Shown here in pieces: positions 1 through 239 of a stretch of DNA of 239 nucleotides. Both the position numbers and the translations under genes were made by a program. Position 1 is the first letter of the stretch. Each line of letters begins with the position of its first letter. The notes under the pieces were generated by a model. That model was not told where the DNA came from. It saw only the letters and a list, made by a program, of their open reading frames with translations, and did no database searches. The stretch comes from Escherichia coli (GTDB lineage: Bacteria > Pseudomonadota > Gammaproteobacteria > Enterobacterales > Enterobacteriaceae). Location of the stretch: assembly GCF_003334385.1 (NCBI RefSeq), contig NZ_QOWN01000224.1. One strand, 5' to 3'.

Positions 1-41
1 GCAATAATGTATGTTCCGATGCTGTAAATTTCCCCGGGTAC
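1..41 (-). other. Start of non-collagenous C-terminal region ([13 protein letters not shown]...), continuing beyond the window
   Basis: Gly periodicity is lost after GRL. Residues become hydrophobic/aromatic (V, I, Y) and codons shift to AT-rich (GAA ATT TAC AGC ATC GGA ACA TAC ATT ATT). No stop codon before the window edge. Confidence 0.6.
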
Positions 42-239
42 CAGCCTTCCGGTTGGCCCTTGTGGTCCCTGTGGTCCCTGTGGTCCGGTTTTACCATCCA
101 ACCCGGGCGGTCCCATCGGCCCTCGCCCTCCGGCAGGGCCCCGTGGCCCCGGAACACCCTGCGCCCCCGCTGGTCCCCTTTCACCTCGTGGCCCTGCCGG
201 ACCTGCCTTACCTTCCGCTCCGGCGGTACCATCCTTTCC
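1..239 (-). CDS. Collagen-like triple-helix repeat protein, internal fragment (partial at both ends; N-terminal side beyond position 239, C-terminal side beyond position 1)
   Basis: Reverse complement read in the frame whose first codon is complement(237..239) translates without stops as [79 protein letters not shown] (79 codons plus 2 bases). Gly occupies every third position for 22 consecutive triplets, which is the defining collagen signature. The plus-strand open frame is a low-complexity shadow of this. Confidence 0.8.
42..239 (-). other. Collagenous (Gly-X-Y)n domain: 22 uninterrupted triplets, 66 codons
   Basis: Codons 1-66 of the minus-strand frame. Pro is at X in 11 of 22 triplets and at Y in only 2 (GVP, GPP). 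Charged residues K, D, E, R are frequent. No interruption of Gly periodicity. Confidence 0.8.
60..86 (-). repeat. 9-bp tandem repeat, 3 copies, encoding (Gly-Pro-Gln)3
   Basis: Plus strand reads ttgtggtcc / ctgtggtcc / ctgtggtcc at 60-68, 69-77, 78-86. On the coding strand these are GGACCACAG, GGACCACAG, GGACCACAA; the only difference is a synonymous third-position change (CAG vs CAA). The adjacent unit at 51-59 (GGGCCAACC, GPT) is a diverged fourth copy. Confidence 0.85.

Follow-up and report, generated by a model that had tools for sequence, protein, structure and literature searches.

A collagen-like domain in an Escherichia coli prophage gene gives way to what is probably the tip of a side tail fibre with its own downstream chaperone

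Several described fibre systems offer a frame for the end of a collagen-like stalk in a phage protein. In the E. coli prophage proteins EPclA and EPclB (ECs2717, Stx2-phage Sp5 ORF67 / phi24B gp61), an N-terminal anchor, PfN or another, and a collagen stalk are followed by a small globular, trimerising C-terminal head, the PfC domain (PF06820); a trimer with a collagen triple helix has been shown biophysically only for these two, and for EPclA, a trimer, refolding of the triple helix driven by the C-terminal domain was demonstrated (PMC3368898). Sp5 ORF67 has also been placed at the tail end by immuno-EM. For a further class, EPclC (ECED1_1681 of E. coli ED1a and ORF-401 of P-EibA), the C-terminus was described only as being without PfC homology (Ghosh et al. 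2012, PLoS One 7:e37872, PMC3368898). Proteins with a DUF4376 domain are known as required fibre chaperones from Alteromonas phage V22 and the Campylobacter CJIE1 prophage (PMC7289586, PMC7882524, PMC10579305), the requirement for active fibre production having been demonstrated in two cases only, V22 gp27 and the CJIE1 gene, and a link between TfaMu and DUF4376 has been asserted (PMC7882524). In Pseudomonas phage PE1, a fibre mutation improved adsorption and the recognition of truncated LPS (PMC12635225).

The window analysed here is a stretch of 239 bases in which frame 1 of the minus strand gives a stop-free translation of 22 Gly-X-Y triplets, all perfect, followed by 13 residues without such periodicity (Table 1). 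An earlier note, made from the letters of the window, had placed an abrupt end of the collagen domain at positions 1-41 with only about 13 residues visible beyond it; translation makes the placement exact, with the non-periodic codons at 3-41 and bases 1-2 opening an Ala codon, and gives precisely 13 residues. The window was matched exactly in two prophage contigs, and the full gene, which encodes 493 residues, lies on the minus strand of one of them (L010 3302..4783), with 79 further tip residues past the window end. Gly periodicity does not resume past GRL anywhere in the full gene, the glycines of the tip being irregularly placed (404, 410, 418, 425, 431, 436, 450 and onward), and the stop falls 92 residues past GRL, so the region is not a short tail; the true domain boundary that the note had claimed was thus borne out.

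Table 1 Features of the window (positions count from the first base of the stretch; residue numbers are those of the full-length fibre protein)
Feature	Position	Strand	Details and basis
Second collagen-like (Gly-X-Y) domain, distal part	42..239	-	22 of 34 triplets, residues 336-401 of 493; translation, PF01391
Perfect 9-bp tandem repeat, 2.9 copies, coding GPQGPQGPQ	61..86	-	TRF
Tip domain, first 13 residues V402-I414 of 92 aa	3..41	-	Translation, full gene
Conserved block 1 of the tip family, initial part (IGTYIIAAL, residues 409-417; window stops at I414)	3..20	-	MAFFT, hhalign
Bases one and two of the A415 codon	1..2	-	Exact window match and ORF in L009/L010

The visible stretch had also been called AT-rich and hydrophobic, a description that is correct for the 13 residues themselves (GC content 0.44 in window 1-41 vs 0.70 in 42-239; mean Kyte-Doolittle hydropathy +0.94) but fails for the domain as a whole, which has 49% GC, the usual E. 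coli value, and a mean hydropathy of -0.23. The highest 19-residue hydropathy window of the tip domain reaches 1.18, under the level of a membrane segment. GC3 is near equal on the two sides of the boundary, at 0.47-0.50 in the collagen and 0.53 in the C-terminal domain, and the shift in GC arises because the amino-acid composition differs, the collagen being built from GGN and CCN codons. Taken by themselves, the AT-richness and hydrophobicity of the visible stretch are biologically uninformative. An intron or foreign DNA behind the AT-rich shift was considered and rejected, as GC3 is unchanged and the ORF continuous.

The gene is annotated as a tail fiber in phage and RefSeq records, and its product consists, in order, of PfN, collagen, Pf2, collagen and the 92-residue non-collagen C-terminus that ends at the stop. 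In Pfam searches, PfN (PF08400, phage_tail_N) covered residues 1-134 at full model length (E 2.2e-42), Pf2 (PF03406, Phage_fiber_2) residues 248-289 (E 8e-16), and Collagen (PF01391) residues 299-352 and 342-399; the Gly-X-Y runs extend over 136-192, 194-241 and 300-401, the first beginning directly past PfN. The ORF upstream encodes a lambda-type gpJ (NCBIfam lambda_TipJ, 2127.8 bits; cutoff 1950). The setting is that of a prophage, represented by IMG/VR prophage contigs and also by the isolated phages PhiR5 and PhiR12; a literature search found no paper on these two phages or their receptors.

From this order of domains we identify the protein as the side tail fibre of a lambdoid E. coli prophage with the architecture that Ghosh et al. 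(2012) termed EPclC. Members of that class have the same succession of PfN, collagen, Pf2, collagen and a non-PfC C-terminus, with no PCoil, and ECED1_1681 has the same length of 493 residues and the same collagen lengths of 106 and 102. There is no structural difference from the EPclC class; what we add is an assignment for the C-terminus and the identity of the chaperone. Relative to EPclA and EPclB, the plan of anchor, stalk and head is shared, whereas the tip is not PfC. The locus also resembles lambda Stf/Tfa in its place after gpJ, in its PfN and Pf2 domains and in the presence of a downstream assembly gene. In its overall organization it is ordinary modular phage tail-fibre biology, not a new kind of system.

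Across the 13 loci with a complete tip, its length is constant and its identity 92% or higher. Residues 400-493 matched no Pfam family even at E<=10, and membership in PfC (PF06820, Phage_fiber_C) was rejected at this threshold; the alternative tip of L016, which shares the scaffold, gave a weak PfC score (E 0.008). With the 93-aa tip as query, NCBIfam returned no match, phmmer against the PDB gave only a chance match to a chlorophyll-binding protein (E 0.1), and a word-indexed search of 5.8 billion proteins recovered only near relatives from E. coli, with identities of 91% or more. A phmmer search of 1.84 billion representatives ended in the same picture, with none of the Aeromonas and Pseudomonas tips discussed below among its matches, and the word-indexed search yielded no candidates when an Aeromonas tip served as query. 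Weak phmmer matches in multiple stretches (P0015-P0020), considered as a sign of a beta-sandwich of Ig-like or Cna-B-like type, perhaps in circular permutation, proved to be unrelated repeat families, and a bacterial Ig-like (Big/invasin-type) repeat was rejected at a probability of 8.3% in hhalign against the P0019 repeat profile, the best of them.

A permissive tblastn search with the tip matched the last ~85 residues of Aeromonas phage fibres. A pairwise BLASTP comparison gave an E of 3e-9 at 29% identity across 84 aa, and hhalign between the E. coli and non-E. coli tip profiles gave a probability of 96.5% (E 9.4e-10), with query 2-92 aligned to template 5-81 of 82. The family profile matched the Pa193 gp47 'Tail fiber' at residues 879-962 of 962 (E 6e-20), and the family is present in 265 phage records. 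It has no Pfam name and falls in the region of phrog_17472 and phrog_4900, the first of which the E. coli tip matched weakly at profile positions 793-859 of 872. Its carriers include Aeromonas P2-like and Chaseviridae phages and Pseudomonas Pbunaviruses, where it occupies the extreme C-terminus of the fibre; the domain closes the protein in the E. coli gene and in nine of the nine non-E. coli loci examined. Conserved blocks of the family are GTYxxAA, PGxxVxGSxL, a Cys, PG(T/S)WxC and Lx(Q/I/F)Rxx-stop, and in the MAFFT alignment the first block corresponds to VGTYMFAAL (Aeromonas phage 32) and VGSYAILAV (Pseudomonas phage PE1). Judged by shallow-profile hhalign and synteny, the E. coli tip is to be assigned as a divergent member of this phage fibre-tip family of ~80-90 aa.

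The tips of Pbunaviruses (Pa193 gp47, PE1 gp78, LBL3 ORF44) and of Aeromonas phages (phage 32, phiO18P, the pAh6-C group) share blocks with the E. coli tip, lie at the extreme C-terminus, and are followed by a small gene with a homologous N-domain, as in E. coli. Against these likenesses, the E. coli tip is only ~29% identical to them, has Asn for the conserved Gly past WxC, and bears an insertion of ~12 residues, IKDENGNYMKANT (~445-457); it also stands after a collagen triple helix, whereas theirs follow a beta-structured shaft. Because Asn replaces the conserved Gly after WxC and the insertion is present, the mode of binding of the E. coli tip may differ from that of the family. AlphaFold2 models contained strands only and were of low confidence, both for the monomer built from a 9-sequence alignment (pLDDT 42) and for a pseudo-trimer joined by (GGGGS)6 linkers and extended by the last collagen triplets (pLDDT 28). 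The sole PDB entry with a family member, 9B45, models fibre residues 1-340/350 only.

The downstream gene follows the fibre closely: it lies 10-20 nt past the fibre stop in all 11 loci with enough DNA. The C-terminus of the ~195-aa product is DUF4376 (PF14301) at residues 75-185 (E 3.5e-19), with which the RefSeq product name accords, and we refer to the protein as the chaperone. Its N-terminus is 37-48% identical to the products of the small genes after the Aeromonas and Pseudomonas fibres (BLASTP over 58-69 aa; E 6e-16, 3e-17 and 4e-14) and matches phrog_1795 (E 6e-18) and phrog_1141; the WP1 record places its own downstream gene in phrog 1795. We consider the N-terminal domain of ~60 aa to be specific for the tip family. 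The Aeromonas and Pseudomonas proteins, of 132-147 aa, do not align with the E. coli chaperone past the first ~65 residues, and the E. coli protein has DUF4376 in addition. DUF4376 chaperones elsewhere (V22 gp27, A5 gp9 and the gene downstream of the CJIE1 H-fibre) have the same position, a length of ~195 aa and the domain at the C-terminus; the N-domain here differs from theirs and belongs to the phrog_1795 family common to Aeromonas and Pseudomonas phages. Nor is it of the classical lambda Tfa type, matching phrog_1141 and phrog_1795 only, whereas phrog_136, 'tail fiber assembly protein', is the family matched by the chaperones that go with the alternative tips in E. coli. A PDB sequence search with the chaperone matched no chain at E<=1, TfaMu included.

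We consider the best explanation of window positions 1-41, with a probability of roughly three in four, to be that they hold the start of the tip (residues 402-493) of a prophage side tail fibre, and that this tip belongs, as a divergent member, to the fibre-tip family and has its own downstream chaperone. PfN would anchor the fibre to the tail and be followed by a collagen-like stalk, Pf2, a second collagen-like stalk and the tip. During assembly, the N-domain of the chaperone would keep three tip chains in register, and the trimerised tip would then seed folding of the collagen triple helix, presumably in the C- to N-terminal direction. Once part of the virion, the tip would touch a receptor on the host surface, LPS or another carbohydrate in the likeliest case, with the loop just past the conserved GTYxxAA strand and the E. 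coli-specific insertion as candidate contact sites.

Variation within the tip is consistent with a role in binding. Across 10 distinct, closely related sequences, 10 of the 14 variable tip codons are nonsynonymous (pN/pS ~1.2), and the variable residues cluster at 417/418/421 and at 463 (N/I/R/K). The PE1 mutation changes codon 901 from ACC to ATC, and T901 aligns with Y420 of the E. coli tip, flanked by the variable positions 418 and 421; this is loop sequence, in which the alignment may be off by 1-2 residues. These patterns suggest that the tip probably binds the host cell surface and that its receptor is most likely LPS or another carbohydrate. The lambdoid side fibre is accessory to gpJ, and the tip may therefore tune the rate of adsorption and not decide host range.

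An alternative scenario that must be weighed is that the tip serves only as a docking or trimerisation platform, and that the DUF4376 protein stays on the virion as an adhesin or protective cap, for which gp38-type adhesins and the 'transient caps' postulated in Alteromonas phages provide models. The annotations lean this way: PHROGs names the downstream families phrog_1141 and phrog_1795 'tail fiber protein', PE1 gp79 is annotated 'tail fiber protein', and LBL3 ORF45 is a 'putative structural protein'; moreover, TfaMu stays bound to the Mu fibre (PMC7882524), and chaperone trimers have been proposed as caps at the fibre tip (PMC10579305). The mutation that altered LPS recognition in PE1, however, is located in the fibre tip rather than in the gene that follows it, the E. 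coli variants differ by substitutions that concentrate in the tip, and the C-domain of the chaperone is kept across unrelated tips, which fits assembly better than receptor binding. We regard this scenario as unlikely.

The remaining alternatives concern the nature of the C-terminal region itself. The earlier note had expected a functional or trimerising head there, and of the options it named the phage-fibre tip was sustained, the region being a 92-aa domain on a prophage side tail fibre homologous to phage tips. The other option, a jelly-roll head of C1q/TNF type like those of BclA and the C1q family of collagen-like proteins, would suit a region that directly follows a collagen triple helix and for which the low-confidence model predicts all-beta secondary structure, but hmmscan over residues 400-493 found no match to PF00386 or any other Pfam family at E<=10, and the PDB sequence search was likewise without a match. 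C1q heads have ~130 aa, longer than the tip, and the relatives of the tip are fibre tips behind non-collagen shafts; a head of this type is very unlikely. An intramolecular chaperone cleaved after assembly, like the Peptidase_S74 domain of T5 pb1 or of the K1F endosialidase, seems scarcely probable: such domains sit where this one does, at the far C-terminal end of a trimeric fibre (PMC10579305), but Peptidase_S74 was among the families that gave no Pfam match, known examples have alpha-helical cores (PMC10579305) while the low-confidence models here contain strands only, a separate and tightly linked chaperone gene exists, and the PE1 host-range mutation falls within the homologous domain. 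Finally, the window alone is compatible with a change of composition that marks a mere collagen interruption, a short tail, a membrane anchor or a eukaryotic exon-intron junction (CTG|GTA), with GTA directly after GRL and the drop in GC from 0.70 to 0.44. This can be virtually dismissed given the exact match to E. coli prophage contigs, the ORF that continues for 92 residues to its stop, the lack of any later GXY run, the constant GC3, the low maximum of hydropathy and the conservation of the region as protein.

The exchange of tips can be followed across loci. The same PfN scaffold, at 100% identity, bears unrelated tips in other E. coli prophages (23-27% identity), no similarity being detected between our tip and these alternatives. 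The N-domains of the chaperones paired with them are unrelated as well (17-28%), and the C-domain is kept at 82-95%; compared in this way, the E. coli tip and chaperone N-domain swap together. The pair of tip and chaperone also occurs on a fibre of P2 gpH type (PF12571, 2e-51). One may tentatively postulate, at somewhat less than even odds, that tip and chaperone N-domain constitute a host-range cassette of two genes which is portable and has passed between very different virions, namely those with lambdoid siphovirus side fibres or P2-type myovirus fibres, Pseudomonas Pbunaviruses and Aeromonas Chaseviridae. Two recombination handles would flank the E. coli cassette: 5′ of it the repeats that encode the collagen, and 3′ of it the conserved stretch that encodes DUF4376, a region shared by roughly 140 E. 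coli genomes. Tips would therefore be exchangeable with the rest of the fibre undisturbed. Should this be true, and should the fold prove new to the PDB, the tip would represent a new small, chaperone-dependent trimerisation and nucleation domain for collagen triple helices.

The assignment ties the EPclC C-terminus, which had been without one since 2012, to a fibre-tip family that has therapeutic Pseudomonas phages among its carriers and in which a point mutation in the corresponding loop alters LPS recognition. Residues 418, 421 and 463, the insertion at ~445-457 and the matched chaperone are candidate handles for fibre retargeting, and a small C-terminal domain that registers a bacterial collagen triple helix could aid the design of recombinant collagen. 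The stalk itself also varies: among loci with the same tip, the last GXY run ahead of it comprises between 20 and 50 triplets, and the 9-bp repeat is likely a site of slippage or recombination behind this length polymorphism.

Translation of the minus strand, which is open in frame 1 across the entire window, bears out both the position (1–41) and the sequence description that the earlier note gave for the end of the collagen domain. The coding strand's final 50 bases have an exact match in 13 IMG/VR viral contigs, two of which (L009 and L010, prophage contigs of IMG genome 643348545) contain the complete 239-base window with zero mismatches. In the full gene the last triplet, GRL, forms residues 399–401 and is followed by 92 more residues and then a stop, with glycines at irregular positions (404, 410, 418, 425, 431, 436, 450 and onward); neither Gly periodicity resuming past position 1 nor a stop within a few codons, either of which the note had named as speaking against a domain boundary, is present. 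The ORF upstream encodes a lambda-type tail tip protein J (score above the NCBIfam curated cutoff), and phage and RefSeq records label the gene itself 'tail fiber protein' or 'prophage tail fiber N-terminal domain-containing protein'. The window crosses the boundary where the distal collagen stalk of a prophage side tail fibre gives way to the fibre tip.

Features of the window, the fibre gene and the genes downstream
Feature	Location	Strand	Basis or detail
22 unbroken Gly-X-Y triplets, GKD GTA ... GPT GRL	window 42–239	minus	translation
13 residues without Gly periodicity	window 3–41	minus	translation
Start of following codon	window 1–2	minus	translation
Perfect 9-bp tandem repeat, codes GPQGPQGPQ	window 61–86	minus	
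Fibre ORF	L010 3302..4783	minus	493 aa
phage_tail_N (PfN, PF08400)	fibre residues 1–134		Pfam, E 2e-42
Collagen	fibre residues 135–239		Pfam
Phage_fiber_2 (Pf2, PF03406)	fibre residues 248–289		Pfam, E 8e-16
Collagen	fibre residues 299–399		Pfam
DUF4376 (PF14301)	chaperone residues 75–185		E 3.5e-19
Trimeric autotransporter after chaperone gene, YadA-type C-terminal anchor	L010 832..2022	minus	
Same autotransporter gene, further loci	L016 3314–4438; L017 3447–4140; L014 5475–6968		

The fibre has the architecture of the EPclC class of E. coli prophage collagen-like fibres (Ghosh et al. 2012, PMC3368898), and its total length and both collagen lengths are identical to those of ECED1_1681 from E. 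coli ED1a (493 aa, collagen lengths 106 + 102; Table 3 of that paper). The C-termini of EPclC and EPclD were stated there only to be without homology to the PfC domain (PF06820) of the common EPclA type, which is a trimer with a true triple helix and whose C-terminal domain trimerises and permits quick helix refolding. Among the heads that the earlier note had entertained, the phage-fibre tip is the one the full gene supports, as it encodes a prophage tail fibre with a 92-residue C-terminal tip; the C1q/TNF-like head fell away, with PF00386 not matched at residues 400–493. Pfam gave no match to these residues even with E≤10, and a PfC domain was rejected on the same profiles. The full ORF also refutes an intron or a membrane anchor at the boundary, as well as readings of it as a brief break in the repeat or a short tail.

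GC content is 0.44 at window positions 1–41 versus 0.70 at 42–239, a jump that arises because Gly (GGN) and Pro (CCN) codons drop out, with no change of DNA origin; third-position GC is similar on both sides, at 0.47–0.50 for collagen and 0.53 for the C-terminal domain. The region's description as AT-rich and hydrophobic holds for the visible part, the hydrophobicity being moderate (Kyte–Doolittle +0.94 over 13 residues), but not for the complete domain (49% GC; mean hydropathy −0.23). With a top 19-residue hydropathy window of 1.18 and this mean, a membrane segment is ruled out. Frame 3 of the window's plus strand is also open throughout, and ORFs of up to 376 aa, with many Pro, Gly, Leu and Val residues, lie antisense or out of frame in the collagen-coding DNA (L010 3550..4680 and 3798..4490, plus; 3532..3849, minus); these look like a by-product of stop-poor GGN/CCN-rich repeats and not like genes.

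Direct searches with the 93-residue C-terminus returned few relatives. NCBIfam gave no match, a PDB sequence search one chance match only, and PHROGs a single faint match to the C-terminal end of phrog_17472 ('tail protein', 872-position profile; E 3e-4). In a word-indexed protein search and phmmer (1.84 billion representatives), all true relatives were at least 91% identical; weak multi-stretch matches to long repeat proteins were found besides, and an Ig-like reading of the tip was rejected, these being unrelated repeat families and the profile–profile comparison with the best of them giving 8% probability. At E≤0.01 the domain occurs in 8 of 50,697 phage records, all PhiR5_x or PhiR12_x with E. 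coli C, K-12 MG1655 or ECOR13 as recorded hosts. It is present in 28 of 5,426 complete E. coli genomes, mostly in several prophages each (median 3 places, maximum 8), which suggests exchange among co-resident prophages. IMG genome 643348545 has four prophage contigs with the tip (L007, L008, L009 and L010).

Permissive tblastn (E≤10) revealed weak, almost full-length matches in three Aeromonas phages; each match lies in a tail gene and corresponds to the last ~85 residues of a fibre in the P2 gpH position, followed by a small 'tail fibers' gene. The Aeromonas phage 32 tip shares 29% identity with the E. coli tip over 84 residues (pairwise E 3e-9), and the small downstream proteins share 37–42% identity with the N-terminal ~65 residues of the chaperone encoded directly 3′ of the E. 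coli fibre (E 6e-16 and 3e-17). Using the Aeromonas tip as a bridge, tblastn recovered 265 phage records, of which 230 are from Pseudomonas phages (mostly PB1-like Pbunaviruses) and 24 from Aeromonas phages, the others coming from phages of Klebsiella, Hafnia and Stenotrophomonas. The match ends the fibre gene and is followed by a small gene in all seven further loci fetched; this gene encodes 132–147 aa where intact (it is fragmented in WP1) and is labelled a tail fibre assembly protein in two records and phrog 1795 in the WP1 record. The family alignment has common blocks (GTYxxAA, PGxxVxGSxL, one Cys, PG(T/S)WxC and, at the C-terminus, Lx(Q/I/F)Rxx), and the E. coli tip carries a mid-domain insertion of ~12 residues. 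hhalign aligned the E. coli profile over nearly the whole domain with a non-E. coli profile built solely from the eight Aeromonas and Pseudomonas tips (96.5% probability, E 9.4e-10). Given this identity, the likeness of the downstream proteins, the synteny, the shared blocks and the hhalign result, the homology is real, and the E. coli tip is a member of a widespread fibre-tip family. In Pseudomonas phage Pa193 the family profile also matches residues 879–962 of the 962-residue 'gp47 Tail fiber' (PDB 9B45 chain 2, E 6e-20); only residues 1–340/350 of gp47 were built (PMC11042391), which leaves the tip without an experimental structure. Outside the window, C442 and C474 are invariant across E. 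coli variants; MAFFT aligns C474 to the Cys of the family W-x-C motif and puts the second conserved Cys two columns past C442, on the border of the E. coli insertion.

An ORF of 191–195 aa begins 10–20 nt past the fibre stop in all 11 loci with enough DNA. Experiments in Alteromonas phage V22 and a Campylobacter CJIE1 prophage showed that DUF4376 proteins encoded directly 3′ of fibre genes are chaperones which the fibre requires; for Alteromonas phages, models place them as trimeric caps at the tip of the fibre (PMC7289586, PMC7882524, PMC10579305). In two other E. coli prophages (L016 and L017) the PfN domain is 100% identical and the collagen–Pf2–collagen scaffold is the same, whereas the C-terminal tips (23–27% identity) and the N-terminal parts of the chaperones (17–28%) are unrelated to those here; the DUF4376 part is still 82–95% identical. 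The N-domains of these alternative chaperones belong to the classical Tfa type (phrog_136, E 1e-35), and the one here matches phrog_1141 and phrog_1795 only. Conversely, this tip with its chaperone occurs on three N-terminal anchors (lambdoid PfN; a longer PfN-like anchor, phrog_366; and a P2 gpH type, PF12571, E 2e-51), and the final collagen run ahead of the tip has between 20 and 50 triplets. The tip is always paired with a chaperone gene whose N-domain comes from a matching family, and in E. coli the two are exchanged en bloc between conserved collagen and DUF4376 flanks.

Functional evidence for the family comes from Pbunavirus PE1: mutants adapted to biofilm have a Thr replaced by Ile in fibre gp78 (genome position 47791), at a site described as the tip of the C-terminal loop, and show improved adsorption as well as recognition of truncated LPS (PMC12635225). 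In the GenBank record (PP848306), nt 47791 is the second base of gp78 codon 901 (C to T, ACC to ATC); the published 'T896I' is Thr901 in the numbering of that CDS, an offset of five residues. The context, ...GSYAILAVFD(T)SAP..., is the loop directly after conserved block 1, and T901 aligns with E. coli Y420, which lies between residues 418 and 421. Differences among the E. coli variants fall at 417, 418, 421 and 463 (N/I/R/K), and 10 of 14 variable tip codons are nonsynonymous (pN/pS about 1.2); with a small sample of closely related sequences, this pattern is no more than suggestive. In PE1, the protein encoded downstream of the fibre (gp79) shares 48% identity with the chaperone N-terminus here (E 4e-14).

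The most likely scenario is that the chaperone N-domain would bind three nascent tip chains and fix their register, that the trimerised tip would start the triple helix at its C-terminal end, like the PfC head in EPclA, and that the mature tip may touch a surface carbohydrate such as LPS by way of the loop after block 1 together with the insertion specific to E. coli. Because lambdoid phages, as known from lambda and its Stf, use gpJ for the primary receptor (a point Ghosh et al. also cite), the side fibre probably speeds or broadens adsorption without being strictly needed. One may postulate instead that the chaperone is itself the adhesin or a permanent cap, as its database label of tail fibre protein would fit; we consider this improbable, however, given that both the mutation in PE1 and the variation in E. 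coli sit in the tip and that the conserved half of the chaperone is common to unrelated tips. That the C-terminal region is a self-cleaving intramolecular chaperone is likewise unlikely, as a separate chaperone gene exists and no Peptidase_S74 match was found. AlphaFold2 gave a pLDDT of 42 for the tip monomer and 28 for a linker-joined pseudo-trimer; a cryo-EM preprint on phi24B describes the same difficulty in predicting the small head at the C-terminus of that phage's collagen-like fibre.

The fibre class has been on record since 2012, and it is textbook knowledge that phage tips are modular and have cognate chaperones. In the searchable literature, two points are apparently unstated: that the EPclC C-terminus belongs to the Pbunavirus/Aeromonas tip family, and that the chaperone is a hybrid of a phrog_1795-type N-domain with DUF4376. 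The finding is useful for annotation and fibre engineering, if unsurprising.

The windows and 493-aa fibres of L009 and L010 are byte-identical, whereas their chaperone starts differ (MNMNVEKISN... versus MWKKISN...), with a gap to the fibre of 10 or 19–20 nt. The mechanical chaperone ORF in L010 (2704..3411, minus) has 40 extra upstream codons and overlaps the fibre 3′ end; homologues and phage annotations favour the shorter start at L010 3291 (MNMNVEK...). The fibre–chaperone gap is 63 nt in L017 versus 10–20 nt at the locus studied, and in L016 (E. coli LZSFT34) it is 350 nt (1930..2278), contains no annotated gene and may be a cassette-exchange scar. The autotransporter encoded after the chaperone matches NCBIfam YadA_autotrans (E 1e-19, far under the curated cutoff) and is labelled 'YadA-like family protein' in RefSeq and 'putative adhesin/invasin' in PhiR12_3. 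Since Ghosh et al. (PMC3368898) place an EPclC fibre in prophage P-EibA, these autotransporters may be Eib-type immunoglobulin-binding morons adjoining the fibre module.
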